Sequence record: NC_054924.1
Strand: one strand, 5' to 3'
DNA length: 64,000 nucleotides
From: Escherichia phage vB_EcoM_Lutter
Part shown: one piece after another, positions 7,366 through 57,400 of the stretch
How the letters are laid out: every line of letters begins with the position of its first letter
Numbering within the stretch: the stretch's first letter is position 1
Notes under the pieces: model-generated
Databases searched by the model: none
What the model was told of the DNA's origin: nothing
Seen by the model: only the letters and a program-made list of their open reading frames with translations
Made by a program: the position numbers and the translations under genes

Positions 7366-7622
7366 TGGAAGGTTTAATTGAAGCTATTAAATCAAACGAC
7401 CTCGTAGCCGCTCGTAAATTATTTGCTGAAGCCATGGCTGCAAGAACGATTGATTTAATTAAAGAAGAAAAAATTGCTATCGCTCGTAATTTCTTAATTG
7501 AAGGTGAAGAACCTGATGATGAGGATGATGACGAAGACGAGGATGATGAAGATAGCGATGATAAAGACGACAAAAAAGACAAAGATTCTGACGAAGATGA
7601 CGAAGACGAGGATGATGAATAA
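7365..7622 (+). CDS. 67: Prohead core protein gp67 with acidic D/E-rich C-terminal tail
   Basis: 85 aa, TAATG overlap with gene 20 stop; C-terminal 35 residues almost entirely D/E. Confidence 0.8.
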
Positions 7623-15960: not shown

Positions 15961-17472
15961 ATGACTGACATTAAAGTACATTTTTATGATTTTAGTCACG
16001 TGAGAATTGATTGTGAAGAAAGCACATTTCATGAACTCCGTGATTTCTTTAGCTTTGAAGCTGATGGGTATCGTTTTAATCCGAAGTACAAATATGGTCA
16101 CTGGGATGGACGAATCCGTCTTTTAGATTATAATCGTCTTCTTCCATTCGGTTTAGTCGGGCAAATTAAAAAGTTCTGTGATAACTTTGGCTATAAAGCC
16201 TGGATTGACCCACAGATTAACGAAAAAGAAGAATTATCAAGAAAAGATTTTGATGAATGGCTTTCTAAATTAGAAATCTATTCAGGAAATAAAAGAATTG
16301 AACCACACTGGTATCAAAAAGATGCAGTGTTCGAAGGATTAGTTAATCGTCGTAGAATTCTTAATCTTCCAACATCCGCTGGTAAATCGTTAATTCAAGC
16401 TCTGCTTGCTCGGTATTATTTGGAAAATTATGAAGGTAAAATTCTTATCATTGTTCCAACAACTGCTCTAACAACTCAGATGGCTGATGACTTCGTTGAC
16501 TATCGTTTATTCAGTCATGCAATGATAAAGAAAATTGGTGGCGGAGCATCAAAAGATGATAAATATAAAAATGATGCACCAGTCGTTGTTGGTACATGGC
16601 AAACTGTAGTAAAACAACCGAAAGAATGGTTCTCACAGTTTGGAATGATGATGAATGATGAATGCCATCTTGCTACAGGAAAAAGTATTTCATCTATCAT
16701 ATCAGGTTTAAATAACTGTATGTTTAAATTTGGTTTGTCTGGTTCATTACGTGACGGCAAAGCCAATATCATGCAGTATGTTGGAATGTTTGGTGAAATA
16801 TTTAAGCCAGTAACGACCTCTAAATTAATGGAAGATGGACAAGTAACTGAGTTAAAAATTAATAGTATTTTTCTTCGCTATCCCGATGAGTTCACTACTA
16901 AATTAAAGGGAAAAACTTACCAAGAAGAAATAAAAATTATTACTGGGCTCAGTAAAAGAAATAAATGGATCGCTAAATTAGCTATTAAGCTTGCACAAAA
17001 AGATGAAAACGCTTTTGTCATGTTTAAACATGTATCGCATGGTAAAGCTATTTTCGATTTAATTAAAAATGAATACGATAAAGTTTATTACGTATCAGGG
17101 GAAGTTGATACCGAAACCCGCAATATAATGAAAACCTTAGCTGAAAATGGTAAAGGAATAATTATAGTAGCTAGTTATGGTGTATTTTCTACTGGTATTT
17201 CAGTTAAAAATCTACATCACGTTGTTTTAGCGCACGGTGTTAAATCAAAAATCATTGTATTACAAACAATCGGTCGTGTATTACGTAAGCATGGTTCTAA
17301 GACAATAGCAACAGTCTGGGATCTTATAGATGACGCGGGCGTTAAGCCAAAATCTGCTAATACGAAAAAGAAATATGTTCATTTGAACTATCTTTTAAAA
17401 CACGGCATTGATCGTATTCAGCGCTACGCAGATGAAAAATTTAATTACGTAATGAAAACAGTTAATTTATAA
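15961..17472 (+). CDS. uvsW: UvsW DNA/RNA-DNA helicase (SF2)
   Basis: 503 aa; Walker A TSAGKS and DECH box; sequence recognised as T4 UvsW. Confidence 0.93.
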   Translation: MTDIKVHFYDFSHVRIDCEESTFHELRDFFSFEADGYRFNPKYKYGHWDGRIRLLDYNRLLPFGLVGQIKKFCDNFGYKAWIDPQINEKEELSRKDFDEWLSKLEIYSGNKRIEPHWYQKDAVFEGLVNRRRILNLPTSAGKSLIQALLARYYLENYEGKILIIVPTTALTTQMADDFVDYRLFSHAMIKKIGGGASKDDKYKNDAPVVVGTWQTVVKQPKEWFSQFGMMMNDECHLATGKSISSIISGLNNCMFKFGLSGSLRDGKANIMQYVGMFGEIFKPVTTSKLMEDGQVTELKINSIFLRYPDEFTTKLKGKTYQEEIKIITGLSKRNKWIAKLAIKLAQKDENAFVMFKHVSHGKAIFDLIKNEYDKVYYVSGEVDTETRNIMKTLAENGKGIIIVASYGVFSTGISVKNLHHVVLAHGVKSKIIVLQTIGRVLRKHGSKTIATVWDLIDDAGVKPKSANTKKKYVHLNYLLKHGIDRIQRYADEKFNYVMKTVNL

Positions 17473-25998: not shown

Positions 25999-26002
25999 CA
26001 AC

Positions 26003-26032
26003 GGGGACCTTTCGGTCCCCATATTTTTATTT
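26003..26032. terminator. Bidirectional terminator after gene 54 and after minus-strand ORF 26027..26317
   Basis: GGGGACC-tttc-GGTCCCC hairpin followed by ATATTTTTATTT. Confidence 0.7.
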
Positions 26033-26317
26033 GCGGAATGAAATGAAAGCAGAAACTGAAGCAACTAAACTGTCTTCAATATAAACTTCAATTTTTACCG
26101 GAGCTTCTGACTCAAATTTACCTGTTACTACACCCTGAAAAATACTTTCAGTCTGTTCTGGCTTTGAAAAATTTTCAGAAGGAAAAATTCCGAACTTTTT
26201 ATCTGTTCCGAAAATTTTGATAAATTCATCATAAACTGCTTCGTTAAAAGCATTATCAGCAGGAATAACGCCTTCAACTACAAGTTCTTGACCTAAAAAG
26301 CGTAAAGAAGATTTCAT
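26027..26317 (-). CDS. Hypothetical protein (alt.-x position)
   Basis: 96 aa ORF, ATG with GAGGA SD 7 nt upstream, driven by the early promoter at 26349..26378. Confidence 0.55.
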   Translation of the reverse strand: MKSSLRFLGQELVVEGVIPADNAFNEAVYDEFIKIFGTDKKFGIFPSENFSKPEQTESIFQGVVTGKFESEAPVKIEVYIEDSLVASVSAFISFRK

Positions 26318-26324
26318 TTTGTGT

Positions 26325-26378
26325 TCCTCATGTTATGTCAGTAAGACTACTATAACACAACACGAGGGACTTGTAAAC
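26325..26378 (-). repeat. 54-nt early-promoter cassette, copy 1 (identical to 40602..40655)
   Basis: Exact 54/54 identity including -35 GTTTAC, -10 TATAGT, 5' UTR and GAGGA SD. Confidence 0.8.
26349..26378 (-). promoter_or_regulatory. T4-type early (sigma70-like) promoter
   Basis: Minus strand GTTTAC, 18 nt spacer, TATAGT; upstream of ORF 26027..26317. Confidence 0.6.
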
Positions 26379-26735
26379 TACATTTTGAACTTTTTAGTAC
26401 GCGTAATAGGCATGCGTCAATTTTATACTGTTTCATTGTTTGAAGAGCAGTATCAAAAACAGCATTAATGACGCCAATTGGATTTCCACCCAAGTTTTTA
26501 AGTTTAACTAATGATAGTTTCTCATTAACACCTATCATTACGATATGCATCATTTTGTCGCCTGGTTTAACGTTTTATCTGTATCACCGCCAGAGGTGTA
26601 TGTACAAAATCTAAATCCAGGAAGCACGCTTTCTTCGCCGGCTTGAATAGCAAAAATTTGTGGTATTTTATGCTTAGGATTTAAGTTAACAACCGGCGCC
26701 GAAGCGCCGTCAAATAATTATGTAATAAGTTCCAT
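26350..26735 (-). pseudogene. Degenerate paralog of the Alt N-terminal region (about 128 codons)
   Basis: Translation MELIT*LFDGASAPVVNLNPKHKIPQIF...GFRFCTYTSGGDT then, after a frameshift, MMHIVMIGVN...QTMKQYKIDACLLRVLKS parallels Alt residues 2-130; in-frame TAA at codon 6; about 70 percent nt identity to 28450..28835. Confidence 0.55.
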
Positions 26736-26738
26736 GAT

Positions 26739-28835
26739 TTATCCTTGAACGAACTTGTAAGGCATGTTTGCAATATCTATGCAAGACGCAATAATTCCAA
26801 GAGATGATTCTACTTTCTGTTTAACATTTGATGAAACAAATGATGCAAAGTCAACTCTGTCTTCTATTTCAATATCACCTGTCATTGCAACCAATTCACC
26901 AGTTTCCATTAAATGGTCTCCATCATAGATTACCGATTCGGTGAGCTCTTCCGTGGTCATAACTTCAGCTTGAATGAGTTTTGTATTATTAGATGTTGTT
27001 CCGTCATTATTAGAAGCATCAGTTATTTTATTAACTTTGACCATCAATCCACGCGGTAGAATAACTTCAGCTTCTGTTGCTATTCCGAGACTTCCTGGAT
27101 ATACAACATTAACTTTATGAGCTCCATCAATTGCCCATCCTATTTGAACTTTAACGTATTCAGGATTTTCTTTATACGCTCTTATTTCGTTTGGATTAAT
27201 AGTTATTCCTTCTTCATTTTTATCAACTGTTAATTCATTGCGAGCTTCTGGTTCTAAAAGACCAATACCAGCATGTGTAATTCCAAAACGTCCAAAAATG
27301 ATAGGAGTTAAAGAAGTAGATACAAAATTTCTGAAATAGAATACTTTATTTTTAACTAGTGCTTCGTATATAGGAGCAGTCATACTTTGAGCACGATAAA
27401 CTGTAATGCCTTCTGGTATACGATCACCATTTTCAAAAGCAGAATCTAAATTAGTTATAGCAGCTTCAATTTCTTTTTCACTCATTACTTCATAACGTTC
27501 TGGATCATAACGACCCAAAAGAAGATTATTGATGTCAGTATATCCTGAACCGCAATACTCTCTAATGCCACGCTTTTGTGATGGAGTATATTTAGAACCA
27601 TCACGGGCAATAGTAATATCAATCATTGGACCTGCACCAATTCCAGAGAAACTATAAATCATTCTTTTGAGGAATTTAGTTTTTGTCGCGTTCCAGGAAT
27701 TTTTAGTTATTTCTTCCCAGACTTCATCTGGCTGTCCTTTACGGGTTTTATTATGTTTATCAAGCCAAGTATCTTTATATTCTTCAAATAATTGATTAAC
27801 AGCTGCTGCGTATTTCTCTAAACATTTTATTGAAGTAGTCGGTTCATTTTTAATCGCATTAAGAATTACATCTTTAATTTTTTCAGAAACTTCATTAACC
27901 TCACTTTTTGAAAAGAATTTATAGTCATAATGAAGTTCATCTGCAGTTCCTTCGGCAATGATTTTTGCTGCCTTAGTTTTAGAAGCTAATGAATTAATTC
28001 CAATTTTCATTTCTTCTGCTTCGGGAATTAAAGGTGCAGTAGCTGGTTTATTAAAATTAGCTGCTGTAGATTCATACTTCTGGAATAATTCACTTTCAAA
28101 TCTAGAAGACTCTAATGATTGACTTTGTGCAATTGCTCTACGGGAAATTTTAACTTTAACGATTACAGCTTGGTCAGAACGTTTATCATTTTCTTGTGCA
28201 ATAGATGCTGCAATTGCCTCATTTTTAGTTACTTGAGCTCCAGTATCTTTATTGATATAAACATCACCGACCTTCGATTCAACTTTAGTAAAGAGCTCAG
28301 TACTAATTTCCGGAACCCCTGGAATGTCTTCTAGTGATACATTTTTGCGATGTATAAGAATATATGCATACTTTTTATCATAATCCCAGAGTTCCTTAAG
28401 AAGGACGTATCTGCCACCTGAACGACTACGGATAAGTCTATCAGCAATAACTTGAATTTGTCGAGCTTGACCAGCAGTTTTAGACTTAAGAATACGGAGC
28501 ATACAGGCATCAATTTTATACTGACGCATTGTTTGCATTGCAACAGTAAAAACCGAATTGATATAATTAATTGGGCTTGGACCAAGACCTTTCAATTTAG
28601 CAATTGAACCTTTAGCGGTTAATGTAAAAGGAACAATATGCATCATTTTATCGCCCATCTTTAAATCGCGATTAGTATCACCTCCAGATGTATAGGTACA
28701 TAAACGAAAACCTGGTTGTTCAATTGCGTCATCAACATGAACTGAAAAAATTTGTGGTATTTTCTTCTTTGGATTTAAGTTTGTAATTGGAAGAGTAGTA
28801 TCTTCGTCAAATAATTCTGTAATTAGTTCCATCAT
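26739..28835 (-). CDS. alt: Alt, head-packaged mono-ADP-ribosyltransferase
   Basis: 698 aa; N-terminal region and ART-like C-terminal half as in T4 Alt; late promoter upstream. Confidence 0.9.
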   Translation of the reverse strand: MMELITELFDEDTTLPITNLNPKKKIPQIFSVHVDDAIEQPGFRLCTYTSGGDTNRDLKMGDKMMHIVPFTLTAKGSIAKLKGLGPSPINYINSVFTVAMQTMRQYKIDACMLRILKSKTAGQARQIQVIADRLIRSRSGGRYVLLKELWDYDKKYAYILIHRKNVSLEDIPGVPEISTELFTKVESKVGDVYINKDTGAQVTKNEAIAASIAQENDKRSDQAVIVKVKISRRAIAQSQSLESSRFESELFQKYESTAANFNKPATAPLIPEAEEMKIGINSLASKTKAAKIIAEGTADELHYDYKFFSKSEVNEVSEKIKDVILNAIKNEPTTSIKCLEKYAAAVNQLFEEYKDTWLDKHNKTRKGQPDEVWEEITKNSWNATKTKFLKRMIYSFSGIGAGPMIDITIARDGSKYTPSQKRGIREYCGSGYTDINNLLLGRYDPERYEVMSEKEIEAAITNLDSAFENGDRIPEGITVYRAQSMTAPIYEALVKNKVFYFRNFVSTSLTPIIFGRFGITHAGIGLLEPEARNELTVDKNEEGITINPNEIRAYKENPEYVKVQIGWAIDGAHKVNVVYPGSLGIATEAEVILPRGLMVKVNKITDASNNDGTTSNNTKLIQAEVMTTEELTESVIYDGDHLMETGELVAMTGDIEIEDRVDFASFVSSNVKQKVESSLGIIASCIDIANMPYKFVQG

Positions 28836-28855: not shown

Positions 28856-28863
28856 TATTTATA
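28856..28863 (-). promoter_or_regulatory. Late promoter TATAAATA (minus strand) upstream of alt
   Basis: Reverse complement of TATAAATA 20 nt upstream of the alt ATG. Confidence 0.55.
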
Positions 28864-28869
28864 AAATTA

Positions 28870-28885
28870 AAGGCCCGAAGGCCTT
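28870..28885 (-). terminator. Hairpin terminator between ORF 28885..29073 and alt
   Basis: AAGGCC-cgaa-GGCCTT hairpin with T-rich minus-strand tail. Confidence 0.55.
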
Positions 28886-29073
28886 TAGTAATCTAGTGGT
28901 AAGAGAGTACGATATATTTCAAACTTTGGTCCTTTTTCATAGGCATCAAATGTTTCTGTAAATTTATTATAAGCGTATGCATCTACAAATTCGAGAATGA
29001 CTTGTGATACAGAAGTAGAAACATCTCCACCTTCTTTTTGAGCAATGACAATTGTTTCTAAGTAAGCTTTCAT
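28885..29073 (-). CDS. Hypothetical small protein
   Basis: 62 aa ORF, start overlaps ligase stop. Confidence 0.5.
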   Translation of the reverse strand: MKAYLETIVIAQKEGGDVSTSVSQVILEFVDAYAYNKFTETFDAYEKGPKFEIYRTLLPLDY

Positions 29074-33608: not shown

Positions 33609-33638
33609 ATACTATCACAAAGGAACCATACTGTAAAC
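33609..33638 (-). promoter_or_regulatory. T4-type early promoter
   Basis: Minus strand GTTTAC, 18 nt spacer, TAGTAT; upstream of ORF 33249..33581. Confidence 0.55.
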
Positions 33639-39750: not shown

Positions 39751-40100
39751 TTAGAAAGGTCCTGGATGTCTTCTGCGAACTTGTTGAAGGAGTTGTTGAT
39801 TTGTTTTTCAACCAATCCTGGCTTATGAGCCACCACATCCGCCTTCTTTGCGTCTTTGCGCAGTTTTTCATTTTCACGCTCAATAGCAGCAATTGCCTCA
39901 CGATTTTTATTATTCATCGCATCAATATAATTATACTGAATTCGCAAATTGTTTAATGCTAAAGCGTTTTCATTGGCCGTTTTTGTAATTTCTACAACAG
40001 ACGTTTCTAATCTTTCAATTTTATTTTTTAAAATTAAAGAAGTTCCGCCCAATGCAATTACAATTAATAGCAAACCTGTTGTCGTATTACTTAATTGCAT
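39747..40100 (-). CDS. Inner-membrane coiled-coil protein, i-spanin candidate (pseT.3-like)
   Basis: N-terminal transmembrane helix followed by a coiled-coil-like periplasmic domain; 117 aa. Confidence 0.7.
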   Translation of the reverse strand: MQLSNTTTGLLLIVIALGGTSLILKNKIERLETSVVEITKTANENALALNNLRIQYNYIDAMNNKNREAIAAIERENEKLRKDAKKADVVAHKPGLVEKQINNSFNKFAEDIQDLSK

Positions 40101-40597
40101 AAAGTTTTAATAACCTCTATAATATCGTCTTGAGAAAGACCGTTAATTAAAATATGATGTTCCGCCGGAGATTTAGAAATTTTAAAGCATGCCGCAACAT
40201 CTTCTGCCATATCTGATGCACTACGATTTGGATTACTAATCCCAAGGCGGTGTTTTCCCGTTAAAGGATTAACGATGATATAGCATTTACAGTTGTTAAT
40301 ATGAACATTAGGTTGAGTCTGATTAATGAACACATCACAATCATATTTCGCAAGCTGATTTTCTAAAAAGACTTTCATCTCCTCAACCGCATCAGGAAGC
40401 ATATCACGGGCTTGCTCAAGACGACGATTTCGATATTCTTTAATGGTCGTTTTCCGCTTGACTTGCTTAGCTAAATCTTTCTTAAGATCGGTGATATATC
40501 CAACTCGACGATTTCCTTTGAATACAAAAATCCCATCTGTAGTATCACCGTATGCTTCAACGACCATTTCAGTAGTAATAAGTTGTAAATCCATCAT
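40091..40597 (-). CDS. alc: Alc, inhibitor of host transcription on cytosine DNA
   Basis: 168 aa ORF between pseT cluster and rnlA as in T4; identification by position and recalled sequence. Confidence 0.65.
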   Translation of the reverse strand: MMDLQLITTEMVVEAYGDTTDGIFVFKGNRRVGYITDLKKDLAKQVKRKTTIKEYRNRRLEQARDMLPDAVEEMKVFLENQLAKYDCDVFINQTQPNVHINNCKCYIIVNPLTGKHRLGISNPNRSASDMAEDVAACFKISKSPAEHHILINGLSQDDIIEVIKTLCN

Positions 40598-40601
40598 AAA
40601 G

Positions 40602-40655
40602 TCCTCATGTTATGTCAGTAAGACTACTATAACACAACACGAGGGACTTGTAAAC
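40602..40655 (-). repeat. 54-nt early-promoter cassette, copy 2 (identical to 26325..26378)
   Basis: Exact 54/54 identity with copy 1; drives alc. Confidence 0.8.
40626..40655 (-). promoter_or_regulatory. T4-type early promoter upstream of alc
   Basis: Minus strand GTTTAC, 18 nt spacer, TATAGT, then GAGGA SD and ATG. Confidence 0.6.
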
Positions 40656-40658
40656 AGC

Positions 40659-42246
<1,588 letters not shown>

Positions 42247-50347: not shown

Positions 50348-50377
50348 ATAGTATCACACTACTACCCTTCTGTAAAC
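50348..50377 (-). promoter_or_regulatory. T4-type early promoter
   Basis: Minus strand GTTTAC, 18 nt spacer, TACTAT. Confidence 0.45.
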
Positions 50378-54433: not shown

Positions 54434-57400
54434 ATGGCCGAGATTAAAAGAAAGTTCAGAGCAGAAGATGGTCTGGACGCAGGTGGTGATAAAATAATCA
54501 ACGTAGCTTTAGCTGATCGTACCGTAGGAACTGACGGCGTTAACGTTGATTACCTAATTCAAGAAAACACAGTTCAACAATACGATCCAACTCGTGGATA
54601 TTTAAAAGATTTTGTAATCATTTATGATAACCGCTTTTGGGCTGCTATAAATGATATTCCAAAACCGGCAGGAGCTTTTAATAGCGGGCGCTGGAGAGCA
54701 TTACGTACCGATGCTAACTGGATTACAGTCTCATCTGGTTCATATCAATTAAAATCAGGTGAAGCTATTTCGGTTAACACTGCAGCTGGTAATGATATTA
54801 CATTTACTTTACCATCTACTCCAATTGACGGTGATACTATCGTTCTCCAAGATATTGGAGGAAAACCTGGAGTTAACCAAGTTTTAATTGTAGCTCCAGT
54901 GCAAAGTATTGTAAACTTCAGAGGCGAGCAAGTACGTTCAGTACTAATGACTCATCCAAAGTCACAGCTAGTTTTAATTTTTAGTAATCGTCTGTGGCAA
55001 ATGTATGTTGCTGATTATAGTAGAGAAGCTATAGTTGTAACACCAGCGAATACTTATCAAGCGCAATCCAACGATTTTATCGTACGTAGATTTACTTCTG
55101 CTGCACCGATAAATATTAAACTTCCGAGATTTGCTAATCATGGCGATATTATTAATTTCGTTGATTTAGATAAACTGAATCCACTTTATCATACAATTGT
55201 TACTACATACGATGAAACGACTTCAGTACAAGAAGTTGGAACTCATTCCATTGAAGGCCGTACATCTATTGACGGTTTCTTGATGTATGACGATAATGAG
55301 AAATTATGGAGATTATTTGACGGGGACAGTAAAGCACGTTTACGTATCATAACAACTAATTCAAACATTCGTCCAAATGAAGAAGTTATGGTATTTGGTG
55401 CGAATAATGGAACAACTCAGACAATTGAGCTTAAGCTTCCAACTAATATTTCTGTTGGTGATACTGTTAAAATTTCCATGAATTACATGAGAAAAGGACA
55501 AACAGTTAAAATCAAAGCTGCTGATGAAGATAAAATTGCTTCTTCAGTTCAATTGCTGCAATTCCCAAAACGCTCAGAGTATCCACCTGAAGCTGAATGG
55601 GTGACTGTTCAAGAATTAGTTTTTAACGGTGAAACTAATTATGTTCCAGTTTTGGAGCTTGCTTACATAGAAGATTCTGATGGAAAATACTGGGTTGTAC
55701 AGCAAAATGCTCCAACTGTAGAAAGAGTTGATTCTTTAAACGATTCTACTAGAGCAAGATTAGGCGTGATTGCTTTAGCTACACAAGCTCAAGCTAATGC
55801 CGATTTAGAAAATTCTCCACAAAAAGAATTAGCAATTACTCCAGAAACATTAGCTAACCGTACTGCTACAGAAACTCGTAGAGGTATCGCAAGAATAGCA
55901 ACTACTGCTCAAGTAAACCAGGATACTACATTCTCTTTTGCTGACGATATTATCATCACTCCTAAAAAGCTGAATGAAAGAACTGCTACAGAAACTCGCA
56001 GAGGTGTCGCAGAAATTGCTACGCAGCAAGAAACTAATGCAGGTACTGATGATACAACCATCATTACTCCTAAAAAGCTTCAAGCTCGCCAAGGTTCTGA
56101 ATCATTATCTGGTATTGTAACTTTTGTATCTACTGCAGGTGCTACTCCAGCTTCTAGCCGTGAATTAAATGGTACAAACGTTTATAATAAAAACACTAAT
56201 AATTTAGTTGTTTCACCTAAAGCTTTAGACCAGTATAAAGCTACTCCAACACAGCAAGGTGCAGTAATTTTAGCAGTTGAAAGTGAAGTAATTGCTGGAC
56301 AAAGTCAGGAAGGATGGGCAAATGCTGTTGTAACGCCAGAAACGTTACATAAAAAGACATCAACTGATGGAAGAATTGGTTTAATTGAAATTGCTACACA
56401 AAGTGAAGTTAATACGGGAACTGATTATACTCGTGCAGTCACTCCTAAAACTTTAAATGACCGTAGAGCAACTGAAAGTTTAAGTGGTATAGCTGAAATT
56501 GCTACACAAGTTGAATTCGACGCAGGCGTCGACGATACTCGTATCTCTACACCATTAAAAATTAAAACCAGATTTAATAGTACTGATCGTACTTCTGTTG
56601 TTGCTCTATCTGGATTAGTTGAATCAGGAACTCTCTGGGACCATTATACCCTTAATATTCTTGAAGCAAATGAGACACAGCGTGGTACACTTCGTGTAGC
56701 TACACAGGTTGAAGCTGCTGCAGGAACATTAGATAATGTTTTAATAACTCCTAAAAAGCTTTTAGGTACTAAATCTACTGAAGCACAGGAAGGTGTTATT
56801 AAAGTTGCAACCCAGTCTGAAACTGTGGCTGGAACGTCAGCAAATACTGCTGTATCTCCAAAAAATTTAAAATGGATTGTGCAGAGTGAACCTACCTGGG
56901 CAGCTACTACTGCGATAAGAGGTTTTGTTAAAACTTCATCTGGTTCAATTACATTCGTTGGTAATGATACAGTCGGTTCTACCCAAGATTTAGAACTATA
57001 TGAGAAAAATAGCTATGCAGTATCACCATATGAATTAAACCGTGTATTAGCAAATTATTTGCCGTTAAAAGCAAAAGCTGCTGATACAAATTTATTGGAT
57101 GGTCTAGATTCATCTCAGTTCATTCGTAGGGATATTGCACAGACGGTTAATGGTTCACTAACCTTAACCCAGCAAACGAATCTGAGTGCCCCTCTTGTAT
57201 CATCTAGTACTGCTACGTTTGGTGGATCAGTTTCGGCAAATAGTACATTAACTATTTCTAATACTGGAACGGCAACTCGTCTGATTTTTGAGAAAGGACC
57301 TCAAACTGGAACTAACCCAGCACAGACGATGACTATCAGAGTTTGGGGAAATCAGTTTGGCGGCGGTTCAGATACAACACGTTCTACTGTATTTGAAGTT

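Follow-up and report, generated by a model that had tools for sequence, protein, structure and literature searches.

Two genes of Escherichia phage vB_EcoM_Lutter that lie some 14 kb apart, alt.-3 and alc, are preceded by the same stretch of DNA, letter for letter, and this raises the question of what the shared element is, what it might do and how it came to stand twice. Within the window, by which we mean the whole 64,000-nt stretch of record NC_054924.1 that was analysed, direct reading of both sites confirmed the claim of the initial annotation that 26325-26378 and 40602-40655 hold the same 54 nt, and a repeat search returned them as a two-copy family of 100% identity with copies spaced 14,277 nt apart (minus-strand sequence of both copies, GTTTACAAGTCCCTCGTGTTGTGTTATAGTAGTCTTACTGACATAACATGAGGA). 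A pattern search allowing up to three mismatches found exactly two matches in the window against none in 100 shuffles, and the next best ungapped match, at another early promoter (37330), agrees at only 30 of 54 positions, which bears out the further claim that the identity goes beyond promoter consensus. On either side the identity ends sharply, the flanks reading ATGTA versus AAGCT upstream of the -35 and ACACAAAATG versus CTTTATG downstream of GAGGA. The window belongs to Tequatrovirus and is about 99% identical to phages VEc20, slur03 and FJ1; a megablast search with the 54-mer located it at 738 places in 447 phage records, T4 (NC_000866.4) included, where the alc copy (136283-136336) matches at 54/54 and the alt.-3 copy at 53/54 positions. 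The alt.-3 locus plus its cassette copy was matched in 498 records, and the rnlA-alc region is conserved in 495 of 503. Judged from these records, the repeat pair is a fixed feature of Tequatrovirus, both copies being present in T4 and in essentially all records of the genus, and a recent duplication specific to the Lutter genome is thereby ruled out.

Structurally, each copy reads as an early-promoter-type cassette on the minus strand (Table 1), in which TTTACA, a 17-nt spacer and TGn-TATAGT match the E. coli consensus at 10 of 12 positions and GAGGA stands 5-8 nt before the ATG. The initial annotation had described it in the same way, and its 18-nt spacer holds for a -35 of GTTTAC; taking TTTACA as the -35 gives 17 nt. 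It was also right about the neighbours, in that copy 1 precedes an open reading frame (26027-26317), here identified as Alt.-3, copy 2 precedes Alc, and copy 1 overlaps the end of a truncated alt paralogue: alt.-2 enters copy 1 out of frame and terminates at a TAG within the -10 region. Copy 1 extends from the second alt paralogue's stop codon (where phages keep that paralogue at full length, its TAG shares the G of GTTTAC) to the alt.-3 Shine-Dalgarno sequence (SD). Since the copies span the distance from upstream stop codon to SD, the repeat amounts to the whole non-coding gap at both loci, and the flanks upstream of both copies are AT-rich.

Table 1 Positions in the window of the two cassettes, their parts and neighbouring features
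Feature	Position	Strand	Basis or remark
Cassette copy 1, upstream of alt.-3	26325..26378	-	Sequence reading, repeat and pattern searches
Copy 1 -35, GTTTAC	26373-26378	-	
Copy 1 TGn and -10, TATAGT	26349-26354	-	
Copy 1 hairpin (predicted)	26326-26367	-	Folding, -22 kcal/mol, z -5.4
Copy 1 SD, GAGGA	26325-26329	-	
Cassette copy 2, between rnlA stop codon and alc	40602..40655	-	Reading, repeat and pattern searches, folding
Copy 2 -35	40650-40655	-	
Copy 2 -10	40626-40631	-	
Copy 2 SD	40602-40606	-	
Extended hairpin (predicted), alc copy only	40599..40649	-	-24.4 to -28 kcal/mol, z -4.1 to -5.3
alt.-3, 96 aa, downstream of copy 1	26027..26317	-	99% identical to T4 Alt.-3
alt.-2, remnant ORF of truncated second alt paralogue	26350..26553	-	Comparison with T4
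alc, inhibitor of host transcription, downstream of copy 2	40091..40597	-	Comparison with T4
rnlA stop codon TAA, 3 nt upstream of copy 2 -35	40659..40661	-	
Microhomology CTAAAAAGT, deletion junction in alt paralogue	26389..26397	-	Comparison with a full-length-paralogue phage (L010)
Late-promoter motif TATAAATA upstream of alt	28856..28863	-	Motif search
Terminator-like hairpin closing the alt-to-alt.-3 transcription unit	26001..26022	-	Terminator scan

Although the initial annotation made no mention of a stem-loop, the sense strand of the 54-mer folds into a strong hairpin with an 18-bp stem, at an energy (Table 1) that none of 200 shuffles reached. In the predicted fold the 5' arm, CCUCGUGUUGUGUU, lies within the -35/-10 spacer, the leader, with the SD included (GAGG pairing with CCUC), forms the 3' arm, GACAUAACAUGAGG, and the -10 and the inferred start site occupy the apical part. 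Folded in its alc context the sense strand gains stability (Table 1) and an outer helix, AAGUCC/GGACUU, which is found at the alc copy only and reaches 3 nt beyond the repeat boundary, a modelled extension that suggests alc to be the native context of the cassette. The short RNA expected from a start after the -10 did not fold significantly (z 0.4 and -0.8). Several of the sense-strand pairs are G.U, which leaves the antisense strand with just -12.8 to -15.4 kcal/mol (z about -2.3), and the weak antisense fold together with these G.U pairs points to a structure of the sense RNA rather than a DNA palindrome. Rfam returned no family match for the cassette, its sole hit being a chance match to mir-5 (E = 0.85).

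The rnlA-alc gap was compared in 12 further phages of other genera plus IMG/VR contigs. The layout GTTTACA, anti-SD arm, -10, SD arm, ATG is shared at alc by Tequatro-, Dhaka-, Karam-, Gelderland-, Moon-, Jiaoda-, Braga-, Kanagawa- and Kagamiyamavirus, and the predicted anti-SD/SD pairing is kept there in about ten genera, with arm pairs that differ by genus (e.g. CTCCATTTGGTTG/CAACCAAATGGAG, TCCTCATCAG/CTGATGAGGA and ACCTCTCATTTTTA/TGAAAATGAGAGGT). Individual alc sequences folded at z -3.6 to -6.9 relative to their own shuffles, and the helix run had P ≤0.018 for each of them against shuffles treated alike. MAFFT alignments (of full cassettes, of an N-padded hand alignment and of 19 arm-only sequences) brought the 3' arm out of register and were left unused; the 3' register was instead set per sequence by the best helix, so that pair counts lean towards structure, a bias for which the per-sequence shuffles control. 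In an ungapped, 13-row, arm-only alignment, standard pairs filled 84.6% of cells versus 68.1% in column shuffles (none of 500 reached 84.6%), the covariation score was 0.512 versus 0.215 in the control, sliding the partner by 1-3 columns left 38-53% of cells paired, and both sides had changed in 12 of the 18 pairs. A separate 21-row count on the register-fitted alignment gave 82.5% paired; Dhakavirus-type rows enter only this count and the per-sequence shuffles. The anti-SD/SD pairing is the most conserved and the most covarying part of the alc helix (columns 2-9 of the 13-row alignment). By this comparative evidence, the alc hairpin is maintained with compensatory changes across genera. Exceptions are RB69, whose alc has a different cassette of a spacer-hairpin type, Providencia phage PSTCR6, with a hairpin over the -10 only, and Aeromonas phage 60AhydR15PP, with no clear helix at alc. 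As a separate observation, the alc SD in most other genera contains GGAG, the target motif of the RegB endoribonuclease (L017, L020-L024, L040-L042, L044 and L050 in our set), and the Tequatrovirus cassette has GAGGA without GGAG.

Functionally, the placement of the arms suggests a simple switch. RNA begun at the cassette's own promoter would lack the 5' arm and so have a free SD, and read-through RNA from upstream, namely from rnlA for alc and the late alt transcript for alt.-3, would carry both arms and have its SD buried, such that Alc and Alt.-3 would be translated only from immediate-early transcripts. As the internal promoter is early rather than late, translation is predicted to be confined to the immediate-early burst, the temporal reverse of the late-only control of T4 genes e, soc, 49 and I-TevI. 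The transcription context at alt.-3 would provide the upstream RNA: TATAAATA precedes alt, so late transcripts would read through alt, alt.-1 and alt.-2 into alt.-3, and the terminator scan found no terminator-like site on the minus strand between this motif and 26379. Directly before the same TATAAATA lies another terminator-like hairpin (28868-28887, minus strand), making a compact terminator/late-promoter junction in front of alt. In T4, alt.-3 and alc have early RNA and early protein, and alt.-1 and alt.-2 belong to the middle RNA class with no protein detected (PMC9697503, supplement), expression classes that fit an independent early promoter between alt.-2 and alt.-3; our literature search found no genome-wide map of T4 start sites. 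Promoter activity, SD masking, the recombination mechanism and the temporal switch are all things that we infer from geometry, covariation and comparative sequence. The synthesis of T4 early products falls from about 3 minutes by a mechanism described as unknown (PMC2988021), and alt.-3 variants escape the CmdTAC defence system (PMC11618068). If the switch is real, Tequatrovirus alt.-3 would be silent on the late alt transcript, and SD masking could help to explain how early-protein synthesis comes to a halt after about 3 minutes despite continuing read-through transcription. That a promoter-in-hairpin, 'immediate-early only' switch of alc extends across much of the Tevenvirinae, with cassettes exchanged via their -35 and SD motifs and Tequatrovirus alt.-3 rewired in this way, is a tentative proposal to which we would give slightly less than even odds.

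A stem of this kind could also serve the upstream message, as a transcription attenuator or terminator or as an RNA-processing or stability element, with SD masking merely incidental. Its 18-24 bp fall within the size range of RNase III substrates, and the hairpins that lie over the -10 at 50377, 37330 and 33246 stop short of the SD. Such a role is the one originally proposed for the stem-loops of PeSL (promoter-early stem-loop) cassettes, and the RB49/phi1 stem-loop cut downstream lacZ expression about as much as a strong terminator (PMC2839356). Here, however, the stem lacks a following U-tract at both copies, neither of which was flagged in the terminator scan; strong termination would be unlikely at alc, a gene that is needed together with those that follow it; and it is the anti-SD/SD pairing that is best conserved and covaries most at alc. 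We therefore regard attenuation or processing as the main role as unlikely. In a 60-nt intergenic region a long hairpin over the -10 is almost bound to reach the SD, so masking could be a by-product of another role, attenuation or RNA processing among them. Early-type promoters elsewhere in the window (50377, 37330, 33638 and 33246, minus strand, positions of the G of GTTTAC) likewise have hairpins over the -10 (z -2.3 to -4.0), the one at 33638 pairing with its own SD (UUCCUUUGU/ACAAAGGAG), and early promoters of the Lutter genome seem in general to be built with a hairpin over the -10.

Evolutionarily, the history of the second copy is most readily read from alt.-3. In 7-8 other genera this gene is preceded by a different type of cassette (Mosig-, Marfa-, Moon-, Kanagawa- (two phages), Kagamiyama-, Dhaka- and Gaprivervirus), made up of GTTTACAA, a small covarying spacer hairpin (CCACA-AGGA-UGUGG, GCAC-AAGGAA-GUGC and similar), a -10 and a leader with ACAUGAGGA at its end; the anti-SD arm is absent from the alt.-3 cassettes examined in these genera. 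Among the genera compared, the alc-type cassette stands at alt.-3 only in Tequatrovirus, and because the stem extension is likewise found only at alc, replacement in the direction alc to alt.-3 is the simplest history. Thus the comparison makes it most likely that the hairpin cassette is ancestral at alc and that, in the Tequatrovirus ancestor, a cassette of this type displaced the one that stood before alt.-3. The alt.-3 cassettes of the ancestral type contain both terminal motifs of the repeat, GTTTACAA on the -35 side and AACATGAGGA on the SD side, so the exchange can be placed within the 8- and 10-nt identities: it would have been ectopic, with end points in motifs shared beforehand, and the transplanted core would be the 36 nt between them. 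Microhomologies of 8 and 10 nt are short for T4 homologous recombination, which we count against the proposed exchange, and the alt.-3 copy might in principle derive from an unsampled third copy. That the two copies are still identical would reflect the youth of the genus and constraint on both of them. Taken as a whole, a composite cassette of the PeSL kind with an SD-masking hairpin, transplanted ancestrally from alc to alt.-3, is the best explanation of the repeat, with a probability that we put at roughly 0.65.

The modular gene shuffling suggested in the initial annotation did not hold in that form: gene order on both sides of the cassette is the same in all genera, and it is most likely the cassette itself that was exchanged. 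Both loci in other genera have a promoter cassette at the same position. Similar, independent swaps between the alc and alt.-3 loci appear, from sequence resemblance, to have occurred in other genera: in a Dhakavirus-like contig (IMG/VR 2706795356; L018/L031) the 3' 32 nt of the alc cassette equal those of its alt.-3 cassette, unlike its relatives, and alc of RB69 (L039/L051) has a cassette of the spacer-hairpin, alt.-3 type.

As to an association with variable regions, the alt.-3 copy adjoins the variable alt paralogue and the alc copy lies in the conserved rnlA-alc region. In the window, as in the T4 annotation, the paralogue is truncated to alt.-1 and alt.-2, and comparison with a phage that has a full-length paralogue (L010) shows that 1,691 bp have been lost between a pair of 9-nt sequences, CTAAA(A/G)AGT, found at 26389-26397 in the window and at 17181-17189 and 18880-18888 in L010, the right-hand copy being 11-19 nt upstream of the repeat. 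The deletion thus ends in a separate microhomology and not in the cassette, and the 9-nt microhomology at its ends rules out a cassette-mediated origin of the truncation. The T4-type truncation occurs in about 89 phage records and the full-length paralogue in about 400. Three further observations concern this neighbourhood and the repeats of the window. Relative to T4, alt.-1 has an extra nonsense codon (26719-26721, minus strand; GAA to TAA, giving MELIT and a stop versus MELITELFDG), so that in Lutter what is left of the second alt paralogue is undergoing further decay. Alt itself (26739-28835, minus strand, 698 aa) shares only about 70% identity with T4 Alt, whereas the flanking gp54, alt.-3, rnlA and alc are 96-99% identical to T4, which points to a mosaic replacement of alt. 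At 7500-7619 and 55835-56505 (plus strand) lie, separately, a run of GAT/GAA-rich repeats in 9-nt phase that probably codes for an acidic, Asp/Glu-rich stretch, and three coding-like repeats of 68 nt with 66-72% identity.

Identical copies could also be kept so by continuing gene conversion, that is, by concerted evolution rather than by a single old transplant followed by conservation. For nine Tequatrovirus genomes or contig pairs both copies could be read; a couple of these pairs, two in all, consist of separate contigs from one sample and perhaps not from one genome. The copies differed at 0, 1, 4, 0, 1, 3, 1, 2 and 2 positions; the IMG/VR scans held 9-14 T4-like loci each, too few for a population test of gene conversion. 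Recombination in T4-type phages is very active, Salmonella phage pSe_SNUABM_01 has the derived base 32A and phage N2 has 34T in both copies, and the alc and alt.-3 loci of the Dhakavirus-like contig are partly homogenised, all of which would suit conversion. Yet the copies differ by 1-4 positions in seven of the nine pairs and are identical only in the window and one IMG/VR contig, and there are variants confined to one locus, 29A+32A at alt.-3 only in three genomes and 32A+34T at alc only in two. Copy variants are mostly private to one locus and cluster in the 4-nt hairpin loop and the -10, a clustering that allows the shared bases to be recurrent mutations; several of the changes in the stem keep the pairing (C to U giving G.U, and G to A turning G.U into A-U). 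Continuing conversion as the keeper of identity is accordingly improbable in our view, and the differences fit one old event followed by purifying selection, with occasional later conversion possible.

Two other readings fare considerably worse. That the inverted repeat is a DNA operator for a dimeric phage protein, for instance a factor that shuts off early promoters, would suit the centring of the palindrome on the -10 and start site and the fact that the T4 shut-off factor is unknown (PMC2988021); we reject it as highly improbable on the covariation of arms that change sequence between genera and keep their complementarity, on the many sense-strand G.U pairs, which would be A-C mismatches in a DNA palindrome, and on the much weaker antisense fold. 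Ordinary early-promoter conservation, convergence on a strong promoter or an assembly artefact, of which the initial annotation had named the first and the last as possible objections, merits next to no credence, for although GTTTAC, TGn, a -10 and often a GAGG-type SD are common to T4 early promoters (PMC2988021), the 36-nt core between these consensus elements is identical as well, shuffles gave no chance match, the next-best match in the window is distant, and the presence of the 54-mer in 447 independent records, T4 among them, excludes an artefact.

How does a promoter cassette within an SD-masking hairpin compare with known systems? The closest are the PeSL cassettes, which have been proposed to recombine together through conserved motifs (Arbiol et al. 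2010, PMC2839356; Comeau et al. 2014, PMC4122927), and whose defining feature is a stem-loop overlapping the -10. The PeSL likeness claimed in the initial annotation is therefore better founded than that annotation could know, since a strong stem-loop does overlap the -10 here, and at the level of sequence the cassette shares with PeSLs its intergenic position, upstream stop codon, AT-rich DNA, sigma-70-type early -35 and -10, stable stem-loop over the -10 and 3' SD and start codon. It departs from the promoter consensus given there for the PST/T4 PeSLs, TTTACW-N17-TAYWAT, by one base in the -10 (TATAGT, with G at position 5; TATAAT variants exist). Their published role is the exchange, insertion or deletion of ORFs between neighbouring cassettes via mini-circles, whereas here the cassette would have been replaced with the genes left syntenic, and the copies lie 14 kb apart with essential genes (30 and 31) between them. 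The stem in Lutter is also predicted to pair with the SD, a point not raised for PeSLs in the sections of those reports that were consulted.

In that last respect the cassette recalls T4 e, soc, 49 and I-TevI, where the SD lies in the 3' arm and the 5' arm lies upstream of the proximal start, and only transcripts from the proximal promoter are translatable (PMC3014915; a review whose text does not mention alc). The same arrangement is predicted here, with the SD paired in RNA initiated upstream and the inferred proximal start inside the hairpin. In those genes, though, an internal late (gp55) promoter delays translation, and the Lutter cassette has an early sigma-70 promoter and contains no TATAAATA; by this analogy it resembles the SD-sequestering class in its presumed working and is not a strict member of it. 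With the T4 'uber' early promoters (UP/-35/TGn/-10; PMC2988021) it shares GTTTACA, the TGn extended -10, the 17-nt spacer and AT-rich DNA upstream, but early-promoter consensus accounts for no more than about 30 of the 54, the identity of spacer and leader and the hairpin being additional.

What the comparison offers is a clean, datable example of the behaviour proposed for PeSLs, in which a promoter/leader unit appears to have been replaced at a fixed locus with breaks in the -35 and SD motifs, and a possible further layer of control in the best-studied phage, in that Alc, and in Tequatrovirus Alt.-3, may need their own immediate-early transcripts. The basic understanding of phage biology is unchanged by it, and the sequence has been public for decades. 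Set against these known systems, the cassette clearly belongs to a kind of phage element already described, to which it adds a modestly new twist, rather than founding a kind of its own.
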